Source of the DNA: Candidatus Dojkabacteria bacterium
GTDB lineage: Bacteria > Patescibacteriota > Dojkabacteria > SC72 > JAFGCJ01
NCBI GenBank assembly: GCA_016932785.1
Contig: JAFGCJ010000002.1
Coordinates: 465,777 to 529,776, forward strand
Direction: 5' to 3'
Length of the DNA stretch: 64,000 nt
Shown here: piece after piece, positions 1,643 through 58,969 of the stretch
Layout: each line of letters begins with the position of its first letter
Numbering within the stretch: position 1 is the first letter of the stretch
Program-made: the position numbers and the translations under genes
The notes under the pieces: generated by a model
Database searches by the model: none
What the model was told of the DNA's origin: nothing
What the model saw: only the letters and a program-made list of their open reading frames with translations

Positions 1643-2191
1643 CTACAATCCAAGATCCTCATTTATTCCTTTCATTGCGTCCAAAACCACCTCTACATGC
1701 TCATCAAAATCCACTCCAAGCTCCTCAGCACCTTTTATTAACTCCTCTCGGTTAATAGCTTTCGCAAATTCCTTCTTCTTCATAGATTTTTTAACAGACT
1801 TAAGGTCCACATTATCGAGATCTCCACCTCTAACCAAAGCACAAGCAACTATGAACCCGGTAAGTTCATCGACTGCCTGCAAAGCCTTCGAGATCCTGTT
1901 TTTGCGCTCTTCATACGCTGTACAGGGACCATGCTGCATAATAGCCTCTATGACATCATCTTCCACCCCAGCCTCTTCTAGCAGTTGTTTTCCCCATGGT
2001 GAAGGATGTCTTTCGCCCATTTTTTCGTAGTCGACGTCATGAAGAATCCCACAGACCTGCCATTTTTCTTCGTCTTCATTAAACCTAGCAGCATACGCCT
2101 TCATAGCAGCCGCTACTGCAAGCATGTGTTTAACAAGATTCTTATTTGAGGTATGTTGATTTACTAGGGTTAAAGCTTCCTGTTTTGTCAT
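1643..2191 (-). CDS. stand-alone HD-domain phosphohydrolase
   Basis: 182-aa ORF with HD signature 'CGILHDVDYEK' and an upstream His ('KHMLAVAA'). Confidence 0.7.
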   Translation of the reverse strand: MTKQEALTLVNQHTSNKNLVKHMLAVAAAMKAYAARFNEDEEKWQVCGILHDVDYEKMGERHPSPWGKQLLEEAGVEDDVIEAIMQHGPCTAYEERKNRISKALQAVDELTGFIVACALVRGGDLDNVDLKSVKKSMKKKEFAKAINREELIKGAEELGVDFDEHVEVVLDAMKGINEDLGL

Positions 2192-5463: not shown

Positions 5464-7353
5464 CTATTTATACAGCTTAAAATCCTTTGTCAGCTCGGTC
5501 ACTATCTCACTATTTCCGCACAGTGCTACTCCCCAATACTCCATTTTTTCATGTTTACTATTTTCAATTGCAGCATTGAGATCATCGTCAGTTCTTGTCG
5601 TAAACATCTCCGAGGGATAATCCACCATAATAACACTCTTATCTCTAGCCTCTTCTACAACCTTTTTTATATCTGCTTTCGAAGCTTTAAGTATTATTAC
5701 CGGATATCTAGAGATTCCTCGGTGAATATTTCCCTCGGAATCAACATAGGCATTCCGCCCCATTATGTCTCCACCCCTACGTCCAACAGCAACATCCAGA
5801 TGACCGACCACATTCATCGCTACACCGATATCAAGATCATCTGCAACCACTACTGTAATCTTCTGATCATCATAAGGATATCTCTCCTCCGGTTTCTTTT
5901 CGACATCTTCTTTCTTTTTCATTATAGGGAACCACAACACATCATCAATATTCTCCGTTTCAGTTAGCATCATTGCTATCCGTTCAATCCCAGGCCCAAG
6001 ACCTGTCGTAGGAGGCATACCAAATTCCATAGCCTCAAGGAAATCCATATCCATCGGATGTGCATCTTCCTCTCCCATCTCTTTCCTTCTTTGCTGTTCC
6101 TCAAACCTCTCACGAAGTTCAACCGGATCATTAAGCTCAGTCCAATTATCACCAGTCTCTATCCCTCCAATATAAAGCTCAAATCTTTCCACATACTTAT
6201 CACTGCCGGGAATTCTTTTGCAAAGAGGCGATATTTCAACAGGATGACCGTAAACAATTGTAGGCTGGATCAATTCAGGACCTACGACGGCTTCCATATA
6301 TACTACAAGAGCCTCGCCAACAGAGGGCTGTGGCTCAAGCTTTGCTTTCGTTAGGATCTCATTTGCTTCATCCTTTGTCATTTTGTCAAAGTCAAGACCA
6401 GTTTCCTCTCTTACAAGATCAACCATCATAACCCTCCTCCACTCCTGATCAAAATTCACTTTCTCTCCCTTGATTGTATATTCAAACCGTTTAAATACAT
6501 TCTCACAGATATACCTATACATCTCTTCCGTAAGGTCCATATTGTATTCATAGTTCTTATAGGCACTCATGGTTTCAAGCATGGAGAATTCAGGATTGTG
6601 GGCCCTATCAACACCCTCATTTCTGAATAGTCGCCCTATGGTAAAAACATTCTCAAAACCAGCAACAACTGCACGTTTCAAATAGAGCTCATTTGCAATA
6701 GCAAGATATACATCTACATCTAGGGCATTAATGTGAGTAATGAATGGCTCCGCATTAGTACCCCCATAGGTCGGTTGAAGGATAGGACAATCAACCTCAA
6801 TGAAATCTCGATCCCAAAGGAATTCACGAATTGCCTTTTCTATTCCTGTACGTTTAAGTATTCTATCTCTAGCTTCTTCATTAAGAAGAAAATCCAGATA
6901 TCTTCTGCGATATCGGGACTCAACATCCTTGAGACCTTTATTTTTTTCTGGCAAAGGTCTAACTGATTTAGTCAGAATCGAAATTTTCTCAGCCTCCACA
7001 GAAACCTCTCCGGTTTTACTTTTTACCACGGTTCCTGTCGCATCGATGAAATCTCCGACATCATAGAGCTTTAACTGATCATTAATACCCTCCAGATCTT
7101 CTTTTCTCAGCATAACCTGTATATCACCGGATTCATCACGTAATTTGATAAAACCTAGTTTCCCAAAATCTCTCCAGAACATGATTCTTCCAGCAACAGT
7201 AACCTTTTTACCCTGGTATTTAGAGTAATCACCGGTAATATCGCCGGCCATATCTGTCCGGCCAGACTTTGTAGCATACGGATCAATTCCGAGCTTACGA
7301 AAAGCTTCAGCTTTCTGAATTCTTTCTTCCATTATTTTTTCCAGCATTGCCAT
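5464..7353 (-). CDS. lysS: lysine--tRNA ligase (class II) fused to a C-terminal DUF2000/PTH2-like domain
   Basis: 629-aa ORF with an OB-fold N-domain, 'FRNEGVDRAHNPEFSMLE' (motif 2) and 'GLGPGIERIAMML' (motif 3), then a linker and an extra 132-aa domain (5467-5862). Confidence 0.9.
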   Translation of the reverse strand: MAMLEKIMEERIQKAEAFRKLGIDPYATKSGRTDMAGDITGDYSKYQGKKVTVAGRIMFWRDFGKLGFIKLRDESGDIQVMLRKEDLEGINDQLKLYDVGDFIDATGTVVKSKTGEVSVEAEKISILTKSVRPLPEKNKGLKDVESRYRRRYLDFLLNEEARDRILKRTGIEKAIREFLWDRDFIEVDCPILQPTYGGTNAEPFITHINALDVDVYLAIANELYLKRAVVAGFENVFTIGRLFRNEGVDRAHNPEFSMLETMSAYKNYEYNMDLTEEMYRYICENVFKRFEYTIKGEKVNFDQEWRRVMMVDLVREETGLDFDKMTKDEANEILTKAKLEPQPSVGEALVVYMEAVVGPELIQPTIVYGHPVEISPLCKRIPGSDKYVERFELYIGGIETGDNWTELNDPVELRERFEEQQRRKEMGEEDAHPMDMDFLEAMEFGMPPTTGLGPGIERIAMMLTETENIDDVLWFPIMKKKEDVEKKPEERYPYDDQKITVVVADDLDIGVAMNVVGHLDVAVGRRGGDIMGRNAYVDSEGNIHRGISRYPVIILKASKADIKKVVEEARDKSVIMVDYPSEMFTTRTDDDLNAAIENSKHEKMEYWGVALCGNSEIVTELTKDFKLYK

Positions 7354-7380
7354 ATCAATAGTATACTAAATTTAGACAAC

Positions 7381-7431
7381 AAAAAGCCCCTCACCAATAT
7401 TTACCAATTTTAGTAAACATTTGTGAAGGGC
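7381..7431 (-). terminator. intrinsic terminator in the lysS leader
   Basis: Minus-strand RNA GCCCUUCAC...GUGAGGGGC (9-bp stem, extended by AUGUUUAC/GUAAAUAU) followed by UUUUU; it ends 27 nt upstream of the lysS ATG. Confidence 0.7.
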
Positions 7432-7660
7432 GAAAATAGATTTCCACGAAATTCACACCAGTAACGCACCGGTGCAAAAACCACCTTCATTCCCCAAAAT
7501 CATTACTGATTCAGGCTTCTAGGCTGCCGCCATCGATATGACAGCGATAGTCTTGGTTCTGTGTCGGGAACTCCCGTCCGATTCTACTTGCCAGGAACGT
7601 CATTTCGAAAAAAGGCTTTCTTTCGGAGGCTCAGGGAACTTTGTAAAAATCTAATTTCCT
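7381..7660 (-). promoter_or_regulatory. structured lysS leader, candidate T-box-like or other riboswitch attenuator
   Basis: A roughly 300-nt untranslated region before lysS ends in a terminator. 'AAUGAAGGUGGU' (plus 7480-7491) resembles the T-box core, and its UGAAGG can pair with CCUUCA of the terminator 5' arm. The class is not resolved. Confidence 0.4.
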
Positions 7661-7726
7661 AATTTCACCATGCTTAAGAATCTCTTGTTTTGACTTTCAC
7701 CTATCCCTTCATCGCCTAGTATTTTT

Positions 7727-7737
7727 TGTTGTATAAT
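7727..7737 (+). promoter_or_regulatory. -10 region TGTTGTATAAT for the 7772 gene
   Basis: TATAAT at 7732-7737; same 11-mer as at 2322-2332. Confidence 0.4.
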
Positions 7738-7771
7738 GAATTTTAGCATAAGATAAGGAATACGGGCAACA

Positions 7772-8770
7772 ATGGGCATTATTTCAAAACTCACTTCAAT
7801 ACCACTAACACTTCTTTTTGTAATTATTTTCGTCATTTCATTGCCACTAACACTTGTATTTTTCCCTTTAGGACGATTCATAACTAATCCCGATAATATA
7901 AATAAAACAATCGACAACACCAACCTGGAAACATATTTTCTTGAAGAGACCGGGAACCTTATACTCGCCGACAAGATTGAGATAAATTTTCCGCTTTTAG
8001 ACTCTGATACAGACAAATATCTTGCAACTGAAGACCTGACAAACTGGGCAAAACAAGAAAGACGGAACATCGTTAATTCGTTCTACGAAGCAGTTGAGGA
8101 AAATAAAGAATTTAATTATGAACTCAAGTACAAGGGAAAGCCAAATGTCTTTATAAAGATGCTCAACTCCGTTATTGATAAAGCATATACCACTCTACCT
8201 TTTTGCGACGAATCAATGGAAGTCCCTATAGATGAATTTGAACCACTTAGCTACGGATGTAAACTAAATACCTTCTTTATTCCAGATTCACTGTTTGAGG
8301 AGAAGTTCACAACAAATACCGTCGATCTACCAGACCTGAAAATTGAGAAGGATAAGATGCAAACCCTTCACAACTATTATGTAATATTAAAGAACGCTCC
8401 AACCATTCTTGCAATTGTAACTATTGTCTCATTTTTTCTAATTCTCCTTTTATCTCCAGTGAAATCGATAACCTCGAATCTTACAGGAATATATTGTCTG
8501 ATTATGGGACTCTCTTCAATTACATTTTGGCTGTTTTTTGCAAGCCAGATTGACAAATATCTTCCACTAGATTTTTCCGCAAGCGAAGACTTTAAAAGTA
8601 TTGAAGAGCCTCTCAAAGAAATTATTGGGAGATTCGCAGTCGAACTTCTTAACCAGATGAAAGCAGACGCGCTTATCCTAGCAATTACAACAGCTGCTAT
8701 TGGTCTAATTACTATTATAGCAACAAAACTGATGACCAAGCCTGCTGAATACTCTGACATCGAGGTCTAG
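7772..8770 (+). CDS. membrane protein of unknown function
   Basis: 332-aa ORF with an N-terminal TM helix, a soluble middle region and several C-terminal TM helices. Confidence 0.5.
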   Translation: MGIISKLTSIPLTLLFVIIFVISLPLTLVFFPLGRFITNPDNINKTIDNTNLETYFLEETGNLILADKIEINFPLLDSDTDKYLATEDLTNWAKQERRNIVNSFYEAVEENKEFNYELKYKGKPNVFIKMLNSVIDKAYTTLPFCDESMEVPIDEFEPLSYGCKLNTFFIPDSLFEEKFTTNTVDLPDLKIEKDKMQTLHNYYVILKNAPTILAIVTIVSFFLILLLSPVKSITSNLTGIYCLIMGLSSITFWLFFASQIDKYLPLDFSASEDFKSIEEPLKEIIGRFAVELLNQMKADALILAITTAAIGLITIIATKLMTKPAEYSDIEV

Positions 8771-8870: not shown

Positions 8871-9755
8871 TTGAAGGCACTCACATTTCAGCAAATACTA
8901 GATAAACTACAAGACTACTGGGAAGAACAGGGTTGTATAATAACCCAGCCATACGGTCTTGAAGTAGGAGCAGGTACATCAAATCCTCACACATTCTTCC
9001 GCGTTCTTGGTCCTGAGCCCTGGAAAGTCGCATACGTTGAACCGTCAAGAAGACCTGATGATAGCAGATTTGGTGAAAATCCGTACAGAATGCAGCATTA
9101 CTTCCAATTCCAGGTAATTCTTAAGCCGGCCCCACCGAACAACATTGATTTATACATGGGAAGCCTTGAGGCATTAGGAATCGAGACAGAAAAGCATGAC
9201 ATTCGTCTCGTAGAAGATAACTGGGAATCACCTTCTGTTGGAGCATGGGGACTTGGATGGGAAGTATGGCTTGATGGAATGGAAGTCTCGCAATATACAT
9301 ACTTTCAGCAGATGGGCGGACTCGATCTAGACCCTATCCCCATAGAGATAACATACGGACCGGAGAGAATAGCAATGTATCTTCAAGAAGTTGATGACTT
9401 CAAAGACATAATGTGGAATGAAAACGTAACCTACGGAGATATATTTGAAAGACAGGAATACTGGATGTCTGTTTTCAACATTGAAAAGGCTGATATCGAA
9501 AGGCATCAAACAATGTTCAAGCTTTTTCATGAGGAGGCACAAGACCAAATTGAAGAAGGTAATTATCTTGCTGCCTACGATAACCTTCTGAAGATGTCAC
9601 ACACATTTAATATTCTCGATGCTAGAGGTGCAGTAGGAATAAGCGAAAGAGCAAACACGTTTAGAAAGATGCTTCATCTATCATCTGAAATATCCTCTAA
9701 GTACCTGCAAGAAAGAAAACGACTAAATTATCCACTTATGAGCAAGAATGGCTGA
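8871..9755 (+). CDS. glyQ: glycine--tRNA ligase alpha subunit
   Basis: '[17 protein letters not shown]' and '[28 protein letters not shown]'; TTG start. Confidence 0.9.
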
Positions 9756-11757
9756 TTTTCTGCTTGAAATAGGAACAGAAGAACTACCCGCAAGACATTG
9801 CCAGAGTATCTTACGCCAGCTTAGCTCGTCACAGATAGACCAGCTTTCTCAAAAGCATAACCTTACATTTGATAAGCTAGAAATCTTCGTAACCCCACGA
9901 CGAATCGCTATTATTTCAAATCAAGTAAAACAATCACAAAGCAAATTAACAAAGAAGGGACCCCTCTACGATGTCGCCTTCACAAATGGAAAGCCAAATC
10001 AAATAGCACAAAAATTTGCTTCCTCAAACGGTATAAAAGTTGATAACATTGCAATCAAGGAAGAAAACGGGAGAAAATTCCTCTTCATAGAACAAGACAT
10101 CGCAGGAAACCTGAGCCAGAATATCAGAGATTTCACCAAGGATACAATCGAGAGACTTCACTTTGACAGGGCAATGAGATGGACTGAAAATACCCCACCT
10201 TTTTCCAGACCCATACGATGGTTTGTGTGTATAAACGGAAAAGATATTATGAAATTCGAACTATATGGACTGAAGTCCTCAAACATAACCTATGGGAACC
10301 GTTTCCAGAAATCACCAGAAATCAAAATTTCAAAAGCCGAAGAGTACTTAAACCTGCTTGAGAAAAACTTTGTTATTGTCGATCACCGAAAACGCAGAAA
10401 AATCATTGAGGATTCCCTTTCGGCCCTATCAAAACACGAACTCGAGAAAGCACCAGACCCCGACGACGCACTACTTAACGAGGTAGTATTTCTCGTGGAA
10501 AATCCTGTACCAATACTTTGTGAATTTGAAAAACAACTGCTCAGTCTCCCAGGAGAAGTCATTAACAGCGTTCTAAGCAAACATCAAAGATATTTTTCTC
10601 TAATAGACTCAAAAAAATCGAAGACTTCAAACAAGTTTCTAGTAATAGCCAATTTCGACAAGGATTCTCCCACCGTAAGAAAGGGAAACGAAAGGGTAAT
10701 CCTTGCACGTCTTAGGGATGCAGTATTCTTCAGCGAACAAGACCAAAAACACTCATTGAAAGACTTCATTCAAAAAACCAAAACCATAGCATTTCAGGAA
10801 AAACTAGGTTCTATGTTCGAAAAAGCTCAAAGAATAAAAACCATCGGTGTAAAACTAGCTGAAAAAATGAAAGGAGCAGACGTCAAAAAAGTTTCAGAAG
10901 CAGCAAAAATTTGCAAAGCCGATCTTGCATCGAGCATGGTAATGGAATTCACATCACTCGAAGGAATAATGGGTAGAATATATTTTAAGGAAAAAGCTAT
11001 TGAGGAACACTACAAACCCCGCTACTCTGGAGATTCTTTACCAGAAGGACCTACCGGCACAATACTTTCTCTTGCAGACAGAATAGACTCTATATACGGA
11101 CTTTTCAGTATAGGAAAAAAGCCGGAAAGAAATTCCGACCCATACGGACTCAGAAGAGAGGCAATCGGAATCGTGAGAATACTTTGGGAAAAAGAAATCC
11201 CTATAACCATAGACTATCTCATTTCTGCTGCTGAAAAAGCTCACAAAAACAAAGCCAACCAAGAAGAGGTCTCTGCTTTTATCAAATCAAGGCTTGACCA
11301 ATACCTTGAGGAATCTGAGAAATATTCGATTGACTACAACCTCCTAAAATCTGTCATCAACAATTCAGATCCTCTCCTAAGTAACAAGAAAAAACTTCTG
11401 GAAGAGGTAGTAAAAGAATCAGATTCAGGTGATCTCAAGCAACTTCTGGAATCACTGAAACGTATTTATAATATCGCGGTAAAGAATCGCTCACACACAA
11501 CCTGCACTATCAAATCCAGCAGTCTCAATGAATCAGAAAAAGCACTATTCGAGTCAGTTTCAAAGCTAGCAAAATTGCAAGACAAACGTAAGACACTACA
11601 CGACCTATTTCAATACACAGACCTTATCAATAAGTTTTTTGATGAAAACATGGTTATGTCAGAGAATACAGATGAGAGAAATCGCAGACTGGAAATTCTT
11701 AATCAGGCACATTCAGCCTTCGAAAAATACTTCAATATGGAATTTCTGCTTAGCTAG
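9748..11757 (+). CDS. glyS: glycine--tRNA ligase beta subunit
   Basis: 669-aa ORF with N-terminal '[13 protein letters not shown]'; 8-nt overlap with glyQ. Confidence 0.9.
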
Positions 11758-15109: not shown

Positions 15110-15154
15110 GATTTTACTCCTTTCTGCCCCTGATAATCTGCCCGGGTAAAATAA

Positions 15155-15856
15155 CTCGGTAAAGCAATAAAAAAGGGTAAAAAATACTCAAAAATATTCC
15201 TTGGAATCATTGCTACAGCAGTCTTCCTGCTTTTATGGCCTTTCAATAAGGTCATTACAACAATAACTGCAGCTGAATACCAGGAAAATAAGGTCCAACA
15301 TGTAGAATACACAGATTCAACACCCACCCAATCACTAATAAATACTACAAACGAGCAGGAAACGAAATATATTACGTATTTACCGAACTCAAGTACTAAT
15401 ATACCGAATGATAACCTATTTTATATTGATATTCCGAAAATATCACTCAAAAGAGATATCGAACCCGAGGTAGATCCTATAAACCCGGAAAATTATCTAC
15501 CCATAATGGAGGAAAAAATTGCACACGGAAAAGGAACCCCTACTCCAGCAATCCCCGGTGGAAACACCTACCTTTTTGCACACAGTAAGAATGAATATAA
15601 TGGCTCAACACCAGAAGGTGCATGGTTTACAAGAATAGACGAGCTCAACGAAGGAGACCTCATATACATTCATTACCATTCAAAGGACTACACTTATGTA
15701 GTACGAGATACATTTACCGTAACTCCGGAAAAGACTAACGTTTACACCGCGACTTCACCCTTCGAATATAACAGATCATTAACTCTGCAGACTTGCTACC
15801 CAAGAGGTGATATATCAGGAAGACTTATCGTTCTAGCAGAAGCCCTGACGGAATAA
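15155..15856 (+). CDS. sortase-family transpeptidase; N-terminus encoded upstream of the first ATG, no canonical start codon
   Basis: 'LFAHS' His and 'TLQTCYP' Cys motifs. The frame is open from 15155 and encodes 'KKGKKYSKIFLGIIATAVFLLLWPF' (TM anchor) and 'IDIPKISLKRDI' before Met 15506. There is no ATG/GTG/TTG in frame between 15155 and 15505. Confidence 0.6.
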   Translation, partial: LGKAIKKGKKYSKIFLGIIATAVFLLLWPFNKVITTITAAEYQENKVQHVEYTDSTPTQSLINTTNEQETKYITYLPNSSTNIPNDNLFYIDIPKISLKRDIEPEVDPINPENYLPIMEEKIAHGKGTPTPAIPGGNTYLFAHSKNEYNGSTPEGAWFTRIDELNEGDLIYIHYHSKDYTYVVRDTFTVTPEKTNVYTATSPFEYNRSLTLQTCYPRGDISGRLIVLAEALTE

Positions 15857-18871: not shown

Positions 18872-19520
18872 TTTACTTAATTATCCACACAATGCAAGGA
18901 TAATTGAAGTAGAATAAGTCTAAATAGTAAATTACCACACAGACATGTTGTGAAGTCTTATTCTCAAAGAGTAACCCCAAGTTTTGACTGGAACATAAAG
19001 AAATTTCAGCGAATCATTTCATATCATAAACCGGGTATTTATGAAAAAGATATATTTATTTCAATGTACCCCGTGTCATCCTATAGTACAAATTTTAATC
19101 AAAATCCACAATGAATCGACACTTTTACCGTTCACTATTATTATACACGTACTCCAAAAAGATACGACAACTAAAGTAGATTATTGGTATATTTTGAACA
19201 ATGACACTACCAACAAAGCCTATTTTGACAGGTATTGATAGGTGTAACCAATAGGGCCAATATCTTTTGTACAAATTTAATACTCTTTAAGTACTCCATT
19301 GACCGTGCACTTCACAAATACACGTTTAGGAACACAGACTAGACTTTGTAAACCCAGAAAGATACGTTTACACCATCAATATAATAACAAGTCGAGGATA
19401 CGATTAATATCATTATCGTAAAATAAAGAGATACGAAAGCTTTCAGCCGTGCCCCGCCCGTACTTACTATAGGATTACCGAGGAAGTGTTATTACAAGAA
19501 GATTTCAAAAACGACTAAAT

Positions 19521-19562
19521 ACTAAAGGTGGGCTCGGAATCTATACGATACCGAAACCCACC
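19521..19562 (-). terminator. putative hup terminator hairpin
   Basis: GGTGGG (19527-19532) pairs with CCCACC (19557-19562), with internal pairing in the loop. Only a short, interrupted U-tract follows on the minus strand. Confidence 0.4.
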
Positions 19563-19587
19563 CCTTATCCGTAAAAGTTACAGGCCG

Positions 19588-19860
19588 TTACTTAACAGCC
19601 ATCTTCAAAGCCTTTCCAGCCTTGAAAGCAGGAACTTTTGTTGCAGGAAGCTGGATCTTTTCCAAAGTCTTAGGATTGATTCCTGTTCTTGCAGCTCTCT
19701 GGCGAACCTCGAACTTTCCAAAACCAGTGATCAAAACAGAATCTCCACTCTTCAACGCACCGGTAACAGCGTCTAACATAGCCTCAACAGCATCAGATGC
19801 AGCTCTCTTTGTAAGACCAGTCTGCTCTGCAACAGCCTCAATTAGATCTTTCTTTAACAT
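19588..19860 (-). CDS. hup: HU family DNA-binding protein
   Basis: 90 aa, 'GFGKFEVRQRAARTGINPKT'; strong SD AGGAGG upstream. Confidence 0.9.
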   Translation of the reverse strand: MLKKDLIEAVAEQTGLTKRAASDAVEAMLDAVTGALKSGDSVLITGFGKFEVRQRAARTGINPKTLEKIQLPATKVPAFKAGKALKMAVK

Positions 19861-32108: not shown

Positions 32109-32556
32109 GGGACTAAGCAGCTCATAAGCCGGATTCTGTTTCAGATGACTATCTCTCTTCCCGCTAACCCCTAGCACAAAATTTCGTATAAACATATCTT
32201 ATGCCACAAGTTAGCGGGACCCATAATCGCACTAGACTTTACAAGCAAAGCGCGAAATAGGATGCAGCAGTATATTTGCCTTGCTCCGAACGGGGGTTGC
32301 AATGCATCTGACCATTACTGATCAGACCGGTGGTCTCTTACACCACCATTTCACCCTCACCCCGCTAACTTACAGTACGCAGCGCATATTGCAAGCAAGC
32401 GGGGCGGTTTACTTTCTGTTGCCCTTTTATCCGAAAGATCACTCCCTCCCTGCTCTCGCAGGCGTCCACCCCGATTAAGTCGGGGCCACTTGGAGTCCGG
32501 ACTTTCCTCATAGCATTCAAAAAGAAAGCCATGCAGTCATCTGAGATACTTAGTCC
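32108..32556 (-). ncRNA. rnpB: RNase P RNA (bacterial type A-like)
   Basis: Minus strand carries CR-I GAGGAAAGUCCGGACUCC (plus 32492-32509) and ACAGAAUCCGGCUUAUGAG (plus 32121-32139). P1 helix is GGACUAAG (5', 32549-32556) with CUUAGUCC (3', 32110-32117). The ends are approximate. Confidence 0.85.
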
Positions 32557-32563
32557 TTAACAA

Positions 32564-32569
32564 TTATAC
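32564..32569 (-). promoter_or_regulatory. -10 box TATAAT of rnpB
   Basis: Minus strand TATAAT lies 7 nt upstream of the predicted RNase P RNA 5' G. Confidence 0.45.
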
Positions 32570-32656
32570 CATAATACACTATAGGATTCATTCGCGGCGA
32601 CAAGATATTATTTGGTAATTAAGAAATATTTAACATTTAAAGAATAAACTACATAT

Positions 32657-34162: not shown

Positions 34163-34560
34163 CGCTTAGAGAATTGAGGTCTCTTCCTAGCTTTGATAAG
34201 GAAATACTTTTTCCTCTCCTTCATCCGTGGATCACGACTCATCAGGTTCTCTTTACTTAGAGCTTCTCTCTTATCTGCGTCCCACTCAACAAGGGCTCTA
34301 GCTAACCCTAGCTTAATAGCATCTAACTGACCTACAATACCCCCTCCACTAACATGCGCAGAGAAATGAAACTTATCAACGGCACCCGTGACCACAAGAG
34401 GTCTCAGAAGATCTTTTTGCTGTTGGTCATCTTTAAAAACTTCCTCATAAGGTTTGTCATTAACAACTGAAGCACCTTTACCCTCGTAAATTCTTACTCG
34501 AGCCTTAGAGGTCTTTCTTGTTCCTGTTCCTTCAAAGTATTTCTTAGTTGCCTTTGCCAT
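34159..34560 (-). CDS. rpsI: 30S ribosomal protein S9
   Basis: 'GGGIVGQLDAIKLGLARAL' and C-terminal 'KARKRPQFSKR'. Confidence 0.9.
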   Translation of the reverse strand: MAKATKKYFEGTGTRKTSKARVRIYEGKGASVVNDKPYEEVFKDDQQQKDLLRPLVVTGAVDKFHFSAHVSGGGIVGQLDAIKLGLARALVEWDADKREALSKENLMSRDPRMKERKKYFLIKARKRPQFSKR

Positions 34561-39311: not shown

Positions 39312-39978
39312 CTGTAAGCCTTTCCAAAAGTGTTTTATGAATTTCTTGAATAGACGGTGATGCATCGATTTCGATTAGAATACCGCGCTTTTTATAGATA
39401 TCTAAGACAGGTTTGACTTTATTCTCATACTCTTCCATTCTCTGCATAATTGCCTCAGGATAGTCATCGTCCCTAGTCTCAAGTTTTACCCCACAGTCAT
39501 CACATAATTCATCAATTTTGGGCTTATCGAACTTTAAATGGAAGTCTCTTCCACATTTAGGACAAACACGTCGTAGAGACATTCTCTCAACTGCTGCCTC
39601 TTTAGAAAGAGCAAAATGCACGACTGAATCAAGGGTTCTCCCAACTGACTCCATAAGACCGTCAAAAAGAGGAACCTGTTCAGGTGTTCTTACGACTTGA
39701 GAGAAATACCAGTTTTCCTCTCTATCAAACCTCTTCAGCCATTCCGAAAATAACCTGTAGACCAATTCGTCCGGAACCCATATTCCCTTTTTTACATATT
39801 CATATGCCTCAACACTCCCATCAACCTTCTCTTCGTACAGAGTTCTAAACATGTCACCAGTACCAATATTTTTCCCACCGCATTTTTCAGCCAGAAGGTC
39901 TATCTGAGTATCTTTTCCACTACCAGAAGGTCCAAGAAATAGTATTGTTTTAGGAATTTTCTTACAAATAGCTTTCAT
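39298..39978 (-). CDS. adk: adenylate kinase (zinc-lid type)
   Basis: P-loop 'LGPSGSGKDT' and lid 'CPKCGRDFH...CDDCG'. Confidence 0.9.
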   Translation of the reverse strand: MKAICKKIPKTILFLGPSGSGKDTQIDLLAEKCGGKNIGTGDMFRTLYEEKVDGSVEAYEYVKKGIWVPDELVYRLFSEWLKRFDREENWYFSQVVRTPEQVPLFDGLMESVGRTLDSVVHFALSKEAAVERMSLRRVCPKCGRDFHLKFDKPKIDELCDDCGVKLETRDDDYPEAIMQRMEEYENKVKPVLDIYKKRGILIEIDASPSIQEIHKTLLERLTGAKG

Positions 39979-56917: not shown

Positions 56918-58969
56918 CTATTTAGTAACAAAATCCACCAATTCCATCGGAATTTCGGAAATAAACCTTGATGGAATTCTATCAGTCAATCCTCCGTATG
57001 TTTTTCTACAGTCAGCAAAACTCAAAAATAGATACTTCCTGGCGCGAGTAATCCCCACATAACAAAGTCTTCTCTCTTCCTCAAGTTCAGATGGACTTGT
57101 AAACGACAAAGAATGCGGGAACAAGCCCTCCTCCATTCCGACCATGAATATTGCATCATATTCGAGACCCTTTGCCGAGTGAAGAGTCATCAATGTCACA
57201 GCGTCCTCTTCTTTCCTTTCATCATCAAGGTCTTGTTCAACAAGAGAAACATCTGACAAAAATTCAATAAGTGAGTCACGTGGGCCAAGTTCTACATACT
57301 TCTCTGCAACAACCTTCATCTCAAAGAGATTCTCTTTTCTTGCCTGCGCTTGAGGTGTCCCGTCATCAATCCAGCTTTCATACTTAGTTACTTCGAGTAT
57401 TTCATCAATCAGAAATCGAACGTCTTCTCGCAGAGACGTTTCATACAATTTTCCAAACAGAGAAATGAGACCCGAGTATTTTTCCTTTAATACTTTTACT
57501 TTCTCACTTTTCTCAATCTCTATCAAAAGATCATCCGAGACCTCAATACCTGGAAGATATTCCCTCCAGTTTTTAAGCTTTTCTGTCGTCCCCCAAATAA
57601 TAAGAAACATTAGTCCTGATCCAATACCCCCATCACCAATACTCTCTGCAGCACCAGCTATCTCTTCAATGGATTTCTGTCCAACCTTCCTCGGTGGAAC
57701 ATTTATTACTCTCTGAAAAGAGAGCTCATCCTGCGGATTTGCAAAGAATCTTAGGTAAGCCAACATATCTTTAATTTCTCTTCTTTCATAAAATCTCACC
57801 CCGCCCACCAGTTTATATGGAATAGCATTTCGAAGTAGTTCCTCTTCAAAGATACGAGATTGCGCGTTCGTCCGGTACAATACACACATCTCAGATAAGG
57901 CCGTCTCTTCTGTTTTCAATTCGTTAATTTTTTCTCTAACAAACCTCGCTTCTTCTCTTTCATTTTCTGCCTCAAACATTGTCACCTTCGGGCCTGCATC
58001 TGTATCTGTCCATAGTTTTTTTTCTACTCGCTCGTTGTTTCGGGATATAACCGAATGGGCAGCATCCAAAATATTCTTTGTTGAACGGTAATTCTTCTCA
58101 AGCTTGATCACTTTAGCATCAGGATAATCTCTCTCAAATGAAAGAATGTTTTTAATTGTCGCACCACGCCAGGAATATATTCCCTGGTCCTCATCTCCAA
58201 CAACACACAAATTCCGATTCTTACCGGCAAGAAGATTCACCAGTTTGTACTGAACCATATTCGTATCCTGGTATTCATCTATTAGAAGGTATCTGTATCT
58301 TTTTTGATACTTGTCCAGTACATCCTTATACTCAGTAAAAATCATTAACGGGAGAATCTGAAGGTCATCGAAATCAACGGCGCCCTGAGACCTTAGTCCC
58401 TCTTCATACTTTGGATACACCTCAGCAACAACTTCCTCGAAAGGTCCCTGAGCAAACTTGGGATATTCCTCTGGACCGACAAGCTCATTTTTTGCAGAGG
58501 ATATAAGATTCTGAATTCTAGAGGGATTAAACTGTTTCTTATCAATATTCAAATCGTCAAGAATACCTTTTATCAGATGGGTAACATCATCAGGATCATA
58601 AATTGAAAAGCCTCTTGGTACTCCAAGTTTTTCCCCGTCCATCCTTAAGACATAAGCCCCAAATGAATGAAAGGTCCCAATATACGGAAGACGCGACGCA
58701 AATTTCTTTTTATCATCAGAAGCACTAAGCAGATCCCGGACACGCTCCTTCATCTCTCCAGCGGCTTTCCTTGTAAAAGTAACAGCAAGAATCTCTTCAG
58801 GCTCAGCCTTCCGATCAGAAATAAGTCTCGCAATTCTATACGTTATTACACGCGTTTTTCCAGAGCCAGCTCCGGCAAAAATTAACAAAGGTCCTTTATC
58901 ATGAAGCACTGCTTCTTTCTGTTGAGGATTGAGTTTCTCTAACACGAGGTCATTATATATCCTTGACAT
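56918..58969 (-). CDS. pcrA: UvrD/PcrA-type SF1 DNA helicase
   Basis: 'AGAGSGKT', 'LLIDEYQDTN', 'VGDEDQGIYSWRGA', 'LEKNYRS', 'TLHSAKGLEYD', 'CYVGITRA'. Confidence 0.9.
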   Translation of the reverse strand: MSRIYNDLVLEKLNPQQKEAVLHDKGPLLIFAGAGSGKTRVITYRIARLISDRKAEPEEILAVTFTRKAAGEMKERVRDLLSASDDKKKFASRLPYIGTFHSFGAYVLRMDGEKLGVPRGFSIYDPDDVTHLIKGILDDLNIDKKQFNPSRIQNLISSAKNELVGPEEYPKFAQGPFEEVVAEVYPKYEEGLRSQGAVDFDDLQILPLMIFTEYKDVLDKYQKRYRYLLIDEYQDTNMVQYKLVNLLAGKNRNLCVVGDEDQGIYSWRGATIKNILSFERDYPDAKVIKLEKNYRSTKNILDAAHSVISRNNERVEKKLWTDTDAGPKVTMFEAENEREEARFVREKINELKTEETALSEMCVLYRTNAQSRIFEEELLRNAIPYKLVGGVRFYERREIKDMLAYLRFFANPQDELSFQRVINVPPRKVGQKSIEEIAGAAESIGDGGIGSGLMFLIIWGTTEKLKNWREYLPGIEVSDDLLIEIEKSEKVKVLKEKYSGLISLFGKLYETSLREDVRFLIDEILEVTKYESWIDDGTPQAQARKENLFEMKVVAEKYVELGPRDSLIEFLSDVSLVEQDLDDERKEEDAVTLMTLHSAKGLEYDAIFMVGMEEGLFPHSLSFTSPSELEEERRLCYVGITRARKYLFLSFADCRKTYGGLTDRIPSRFISEIPMELVDFVTK

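Follow-up and report, generated by a model that had tools for sequence, protein, structure and literature searches.

How does transcription enter lysS, the gene for lysyl-tRNA synthetase (LysRS), when a strong intrinsic terminator stands almost against its start codon? The question is raised by a stretch of 64,000 nucleotides (nt) from a Candidatus Dojkabacteria bacterium (contig JAFGCJ010000002.1), which is referred to as the window in what follows. In this window lysS lies on the minus strand (5464-7353), and its product is a class II enzyme carrying the Pfam domains tRNA-synt_2 (E-value 5e-74) and tRNA_anti-codon (OB) as well as a C-terminal DUF2000 (8e-36). The gap 5' of the gene measures 418 bp (7354-7771), is bounded by a divergent open reading frame (ORF) and is the fifth longest of 69 in the window, where the median gap is 28 bp according to a crude gene model. 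A preliminary description of the locus had pointed to this unusual length and to a strong terminator whose UUUUU ends 27 nt upstream of the lysS ATG; both observations hold, the terminator being located at 7431-7386 with a stability of about -27 kcal/mol. Since lysS is presumably essential, such a structure would imply some mechanism of read-through. We propose, with a probability of roughly 0.8, that the leader acts as a transcription attenuator of the T-box family that responds to tRNA-Lys. On sequence grounds, it is a genuine member of this family.

The T-box model of Rfam (RF00230) matches the minus strand from 7721 to 7423, adjoining lysS upstream and on the same strand, and is aligned end to end (model positions 1-219) at 30 bits, with an E-value of 7.2e-5 in a search of 551 nt. 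Similarly, a covariance model of Stem I built from five relatives only, the window being excluded (model R1), recovers the Stem I of the window at exactly 7628-7716 (30.3 bits, E-value 1e-4, 185 kb searched) and, at E-values up to 1, matches nothing in control DNA of unrelated origin totalling 1.42 Mb. This control was DNA preselected for the T-box core string, and core scans of viral contigs had given 161 loci, apparently all chance matches; as R1 finds none there, these loci serve as a negative control. Elsewhere in the window R1 detects no second Stem I, barring a weak match at 34163-34279 on the minus strand (17.4 bits, E-value 0.2), just past a Mg-chelatase-like gene, which was taken as noise.

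The closest relatives of this LysRS are encoded by metagenome-assembled Candidatus Dojkabacteria (WS6) genomes, plus some labelled Saccharibacteria. Directly upstream of their lysS genes, RF00230 matches loci L002 (69.6 bits), L003 (55.3), L004 (49.3) and L005 (47.4) and, among further relatives, L018 (50.1) and L024 (41.7), with a partial match in L006. The E-values of these matches range from 2e-6 to 5e-13 and all scores (41.7-69.6 bits) lie under the gathering score of the family. The same leader is found by inspection in L007, L017 and L026, and R1 also finds it in L026 and L007. The homologous leaders are always placed directly upstream of lysS in the same orientation, and the T-box is present in 10 of about 20 lysS loci sampled, across many Dojkabacteria lineages. 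A scan of metagenomes added nothing beyond duplicates and distant lysS loci that lack a T-box. Because the 11 Dojkabacteria lysS leaders all score under the gathering score, standard pipelines would not annotate them.

The leader covers about 380 nt of the minus strand (roughly 7733-7354) and folds more stably than shuffled sequences (z = -3.45). A consensus scan identifies a promoter-like site with 9 of 12 consensus matches and a TG ahead of the -10, from which transcription is predicted to start near 7733; the -10 TAAAAT and the downstream AUUAUACAACAAAA are also kept in the relative L018. Over 4.2 kb spanning the leader, the sequence is 100% identical to that of a second, independent assembly in the public databases. 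From the promoter to Stem III, the features are:

7740-7769, minus strand: promoter-like site, with TTGCCC at 7769-7764, an 18-nt spacer and TG-n-TAAAAT, the -10 lying at 7745-7740
7628-7716, minus strand: Stem I, complete, 89 nt, from the RF00230 alignment, the R1 match and per-sequence folds
7716-7709 and 7633-7628, minus strand: kink-turn (K-turn) of Stem I, GGC-GAU-GA and GA-GCC
within 7628-7716, minus strand: lower stem of Stem I (GGGA/UCCC), specifier loop, 9-bp middle stem and 7-bp upper stem
7685-7681, minus strand: AG bulge, AGAGA, of which AG.GA is invariant in all leaders
7673-7663, minus strand: distal loop of 11 nt, GCAUGGUGAAA, resembling GgUUGGUGaaA, the consensus of Rfam
7639-7641, minus strand: specifier AAG (Lys), followed by U at 7638 and then by UCCC, the 3' strand of the lower stem
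7577-7627, minus strand: Stem II, with the base helix UCCGA/UCGGA, from the RF00230 alignment and RNAalifold
7556-7576, minus strand: Stem IIA/B pseudoknot, IIA being CGG/CCG and IIB pairing GUUC (7571-7568) with GAAC (7559-7556)
7526-7545, minus strand: additional hairpin separating the pseudoknot from Stem III, GCUGUCAU-AUCG-AUGGCGGC, from minimum free energy folds
7493-7515, minus strand: Stem III, CCUGAAUCA-GUAA-UGAUUUUGGG, from the RF00230 alignment, relatives having hairpins at the same position

With a full Stem I, Stem II and pseudoknot, the 5' two thirds of the leader are closer to the canonical form than the preliminary description held, and only the discriminator is non-canonical. 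That description had started the feature at 7660 and judged Stem I to be short; the leader begins at about 7721-7733, and the complete 89-nt Stem I (7716-7628) starts 56 nt upstream of that coordinate. It had also taken GAA-CC-AAG-A (7559-7551) as the specifier context and AGUA (7588-7585) as its S-turn. The former, GAACCAAGA, was rejected as a specifier, being the 3' strand of IIB in the pseudoknot with its linker, and the latter is the S-turn of Stem II. The T-box type of the leader is thus retained, on the RF00230 match, the relatives, the covariation and the AAG, and the anatomy first given to the specifier and Stem I is replaced.

Placed in Stem I, the specifier AAG is invariant in nine of nine leaders, in a register fixed relative to the lower stem and the K-turn, and its amino acid is that of the regulated gene, lysS. 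The covariation analysis of relatives, which had been suggested along with the Rfam search, reveals compensatory changes in Stem I, Stem II and the pseudoknot. Indeed, the pairs flanking the K-turn covary (GC in seven leaders and AU in two; AU in six and GC in three; GC in six and AU in three), and pairs of the lower stem also swap GC and AU among leaders. On an alignment of eight leaders (A9), fitted to the covariance model with a resulting bias in favour of the structure, the pairing of Stem I is realized in 82.7% of cells, compared to 36-55% in slid controls, with compensatory changes in 18 of 26 pairs and no shuffle attaining the observed score; the upper stem (helix 5) covaries on this alignment. 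MAFFT and RNAalifold, applied to the full Stem I and to the variant antiterminator, mis-register the variable hairpins, and were therefore replaced by the model-based alignment and by per-sequence constrained folds. The AG bulge and the distal loop are predicted, by comparison with the family model, to form the platform for the tRNA elbow.

Stem II is conserved down to the motifs of its internal loop, AAGAAA on the 5' side and AGUAGAA, the S-turn, on the 3' side; for nine leaders, RNAalifold predicts nine pairs, every one of them with compensatory changes. The IIA/B pseudoknot is 84.1% paired on alignment A4, compared to 27-54% in slid controls, and three of the four IIB pairs show compensatory changes, with GUUC/GAAC, GCUC/GAGU, GCUU/GAGC and ACUU/GAGU occurring across leaders. 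The extra hairpin ahead of Stem III has a counterpart, differing in sequence, in L017, L018, L024, L026 and L007.

The remaining third of the leader holds the parts that would read the 3' end of the tRNA and decide on termination:

7480-7488, minus strand: T-box core, GAAGG (7488-7484, 5' strand of A1) followed by UGGU (7483-7480)
7454-7476, minus strand: hairpin of 23 nt in the T-box bulge, with the core GCACCGGU-GCGUU-ACUGGUGU, from folds of the antiterminator segment
7430-7447, minus strand: A2'-like helix, GUGGAAA-UCUA-UUUUCGC, stacking on the 3' strand of A1, from folds
7386-7431, minus strand: intrinsic terminator, GCCCUUCAC...GUGAGGGGC, from sequence and fold
7377-7385, minus strand: U-run, UUUUUGUUG, directly after the terminator stem
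5464-7353, minus strand: lysS, coding for the class II LysRS of 629 aa with its C-terminal DUF2000

RF00230 aligns the core to GGGUGGU. GAAGG is part of AAUGAAGGUGGU at 7491-7480, and its complement CCUUC (7429-7425), the 3' strand of A1, sits in the 5' arm of the terminator, as the preliminary description had recognized. This 5' arm contains the 3' strand of A1 together with the end of A2', so that terminator and antiterminator are mutually exclusive. A1 is nearly invariant among leaders: GAAGGUGGU is found unchanged in 10 of 11, the exception being L018, where AAAGG is compensated by CCUUU and the partner in the terminator is adjusted too (AAAGG/CCUUU/AGGGGG). The UGGU that follows is the predicted partner of the ACCA end of the tRNA, and by the same pairing it predicts a discriminator base A73 in the cognate tRNA-Lys. 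Bacterial tRNA-Lys usually has a discriminator A73.

The terminator stem has 9 pairs in its outer part and 11 in its inner part, separated by a 1x1 mismatch, and is capped by a loop of 4 nt. A simple terminator scan overlooked this hairpin, possibly on account of the mismatch and of the high AU content of the inner part. Its folding free energy is -27.3 kcal/mol, compared to -20.3 kcal/mol for the whole antiterminator junction, and the overlap of the terminator with A1 as well as its greater stability relative to the antiterminator are found in 10 of 10 leaders. In these folding models, the balance is as expected for a switch that is off by default.

The leaders of L002-L007 present a textbook antiterminator without any inserted hairpin, GAAGG-UGGUACC-GUGU...ACAC-CCUUC. 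In the window and in L017, L018, L024 and L026, the antiterminator segment folded alone gives a three-way junction. In the window this junction is predicted to be made of A1, A2' and the hairpin inserted in the bulge, a hairpin that the preliminary description had also noticed, along with the lack of ACC, and that the folds place at 7476-7454. The inserted stems of the five variant leaders have unrelated sequences and 4-12 bp and follow UGGU(U/A). They are succeeded by a short conserved linker, mostly UUC (UUUC in the window, GAAC in L017), and in all five a 5'-GYG...CGC-3' helix abuts CCUU, its fourth pair being G-U in three and U-A in two. Removal of the hairpin would leave UGGUU-UUC-GCG, and the structure may thus be read as an insertion in the bulge that cost the ACC. 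According to the folds, the discriminator is a lineage-specific variant in which UGGU(U), an inserted hairpin and UUC take the place of UGGNACC.

By homology with characterised T-boxes (PMC2916919, PMC9177973), we infer tRNA binding, charge sensing and read-through as follows. Transcription would start at the promoter-like site near 7769-7740, and Stem I would capture tRNA-Lys, AAG (7641-7639) pairing with the anticodon while the AG-bulge/distal-loop platform docks the elbow. The 3' ACCA of an uncharged tRNA would pair with UGGU (7483-7480), stabilizing A1 (GAAGG/CCUUC) and A2' and sequestering the 5' arm of the terminator, which would let the polymerase read into lysS. Charged tRNA-Lys could not pair in this way; the more stable terminator would then form and transcription would end at the U-run (7385-7377).

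Several observations weigh against such a function. The score of 30 bits is far from the gathering score of RF00230 (93 bits) and is the lowest of the set; as a consequence, whole-window Rfam scans, whether by gathering score or by E-value, miss the lysS T-box, which also makes them uninformative on other T-boxes in the window. Directly 3' of the specifier, eight of eight relatives have A or G but the window has U, so that the conserved purine is lacking; an alternative AAA-G frame one base upstream, present in the window, L024 and L026 and also reading Lys, would restore it at the cost of a one-base change of register. The bulge of the window, UGGUUUUU, lacks ACC and does not form the canonical 7-nt UGGNACC. 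We know of no characterised T-box with a hairpin-interrupted bulge lacking ACC, and with both traits the leader may sense charging differently or no longer at all. In addition, L001, L019 and L020, equally close relatives (LysRS 68-70% identical), have no T-box upstream of lysS and only a short promoter-bearing gap, which indicates that the element is dispensable in the clade. Finally, a search of the window and of 19 loci gave no tRNA-Lys gene in which the anticodon and the discriminator could be checked. The pyrimidine after the specifier, the absence of ACC, the interrupted bulge, the lowest Rfam score (30 compared to 41.7-69.6 bits) and the complete loss of the leader in L001, L019 and L020 would fit a decaying relic that no longer senses tRNA, with a terminator acting as a constitutive partial attenuator or being bypassed, on its way to the loss seen in sister lineages. 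We consider this unlikely, although it is the most serious of the alternatives: all helices of the window are intact, with compensatory changes relative to the relatives, and UGGU, AAG and the overlap of A1 with the terminator are all retained. Moreover, the three-way-junction discriminator is kept in four other lineages whose LysRS are only 43-72% identical, which argues for selection, and an unregulated terminator of -27 kcal/mol ahead of lysS would be costly.

The insertion sits exactly where the 3' end of the tRNA is read, and whereas the stem of the hairpin varies, the strands of the junction, UGGUU ... UUC, are kept. This could indicate a re-purposed scaffold whose hairpin or junction binds LysRS itself, in an autoregulatory manner, or a small molecule, replacing or supplementing the 3' end of the tRNA. 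E. coli ThrRS, for instance, autoregulates on its own mRNA. Small molecules are bound by the S. aureus stem Sa (PMC9177973). However, neither the loop nor the stem of the hairpin is conserved in sequence, the stem varies from 4 to 12 bp, nothing hints at a specific site for a ligand or a protein, and Stem I, the specifier and UGGU, which are the tRNA-binding parts, are all maintained; re-purposing thus appears quite improbable. Least probable of all, to the point of being negligible in our view, is that the region contains no T-box and represents instead a lysine riboswitch, an attenuator based on a leader peptide, or a separate small RNA whose 3' end is the terminator. A long structured leader with a terminator (z = -3.45) and several short ORFs would be expected in such cases too, but at E-values up to 10 the region 7300-7850 has no match to the lysine riboswitch (RF00168) and no meaningful match to any Rfam family other than the T-box. 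The minus-strand ORFs of the leader, 21-30 aa long, have 0-2 Lys codons each and never a run of them, in agreement with the preliminary description, which had dismissed a leader peptide, and the constant position and orientation of the homologous leaders directly 5' of lysS speak against an independent RNA. A T-box attenuator responding to tRNA-Lys remains the preferred reading.

Compared to the T-boxes of RF00230, such as those of B. subtilis tyrS and glyQS, the order of domains and the motifs are shared from the K-turn through the GGUGGU core, and here as there the 3' strand of A1 is shared with an intrinsic terminator and an aminoacyl-tRNA synthetase gene lies downstream. The window departs from the canonical architecture by a hairpin between UGGU(U) and (U)UC instead of UGGNACC, by a specifier loop with only UAG on its 5' side and no AGUA/GAA S-turn, by the pyrimidine after the specifier, by the extra hairpin ahead of Stem III and by its sub-gathering score. 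In addition, canonical hosts are Firmicutes or Actinobacteria, whereas the host here is a bacterium of the candidate phyla radiation. The lysine riboswitch (L-box, RF00168) is comparable in that it acts in cis from a leader and makes a terminator depend on lysine status, but it senses free lysine, not tRNA, and its five-helix fold is unrelated to the leader of the window. The nearest parallel to the inserted hairpin is stem Sa of S. aureus glyS, a lineage-specific insertion in a working antiterminator that is part of or appended to A2 and leaves the bulge conserved (PMC9177973). Both insertions are conserved in position and variable in length and sequence; unlike stem Sa, however, the hairpin described here lies inside the bulge, 5' of A2', with loss of ACC, and the amino acid, the gene and the phylum differ.

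T-boxes with Lys specificity were described for lysK of B. cereus and B. thuringiensis, lysS2 of C. beijerinckii and lysS of S. thermophilum (Foy et al., 2010, PMC2916919), and that of B. cereus responds experimentally to uncharged tRNA-Lys (PMC2916919). A survey of 891 genomes found them in only four species, each of which also has a second LysRS that is unregulated; this rarity was called "puzzling" (PMC2916919), and it was suggested that a sole housekeeping LysRS is possibly unsuitable for T-box control (Foy et al., 2010, PMC2916919). In contrast to these four species, the Dojkabacteria element recurs over many lineages. Lys is also one of the rarest specifiers in the T-box database TBDB, according to which amino acids with two codons tend to be specified by the one with a final A (PMC7778990), whereas AAG is used in nine of nine Dojkabacteria leaders. 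In the open-access literature, no paper joining the T-box with the candidate phyla radiation, the Patescibacteria or its phyla was found. Four traits distinguish the leader: its bulge is interrupted, its specificity is Lys(AAG), its host belongs to this phylum, and its score falls short of the threshold curated for the family.

On this basis, we tentatively suggest, with slightly less than even confidence, that Dojkabacteria carry an undescribed working subclass of T-box, in which a three-way junction with an inserted hairpin takes the place of the near-invariant 7-nt bulge, still reads the 3' end of tRNA-Lys and controls the sole housekeeping LysRS of a reduced genome. If this were true, no T-box family would have been documented earlier in the candidate phyla radiation, and the subclass would be a natural test of how much of the discriminator core is needed for charge sensing, and control of a sole LysRS would be precisely the situation that Foy et al. 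found absent from 891 genomes. More generally, a clade with repeated T-box control of lysS, possibly as sole copy, bears on the rarity of Lys T-boxes. If the variant works, the charge-sensing core would tolerate more remodelling than the solved structures of Bacillus type suggest. The occurrence of canonical and variant leaders within one clade permits a direct swap comparison.

The LysRS of the clade vary at their C-terminus, with fusions to DUF2000, B3_4, HD or combinations of these giving proteins of up to 962 aa; in close relatives the enzyme is a plain LysRS, about 476 aa long. In the window, the DUF2000 region (5464-5865, minus strand) matches PDB entry 2gax, a hypothetical protein (E-value 5e-11). 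The T-box has a patchy distribution, and a link between these fusions and its presence was considered and is only loose, as L022, L023 and L025 encode fused enzymes without a T-box. In L007, positions 877-944 on the plus strand have an Rfam tRNA match of 45.7 bits with a shortened T-loop region, where ARAGORN makes no call.

Around the leader, a 139-aa ORF without Pfam match (7651-8070, minus strand) overlaps Stem I and the opposite-strand divergent gene and is probably spurious. An unannotated ORF of 332 aa (7772-8770), also without Pfam match, separates the leader from glyQS (8871-11757, plus strand), and the gap upstream of glyQ is only 100 nt; in L024 (449-1000) and L026 (425-1000), glyQ and the T-box leader of lysS are in divergent orientation. 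A second class II aminoacyl-tRNA synthetase of 446 aa, with tRNA-synt_2b and HGTP_anticodon domains, is encoded at 61-1401 on the minus strand and is presumably the thrS of the preliminary description. The region upstream of it (1402-2470), which includes an ORF of 182 aa (1643-2191, minus strand), has no match to the T-box or any other Rfam family at E-values up to 1. Other long gaps in the crude gene model are 18872-19621 (750 bp), 39366-39961 (596 bp), 2031-2470 (440 bp) and 15110-15505 (396 bp), and a gap of 548 bp (32109-32656) is accounted for by RNase P RNA. Lastly, RF03531 (n00280, "sRNA included into helicase gene") has a sub-threshold match at 57003-57105 on the minus strand (37 bits, E-value 0.02), which lies inside a UvrD-type helicase ORF (56918-58969) and most likely reflects conservation of the coding sequence.

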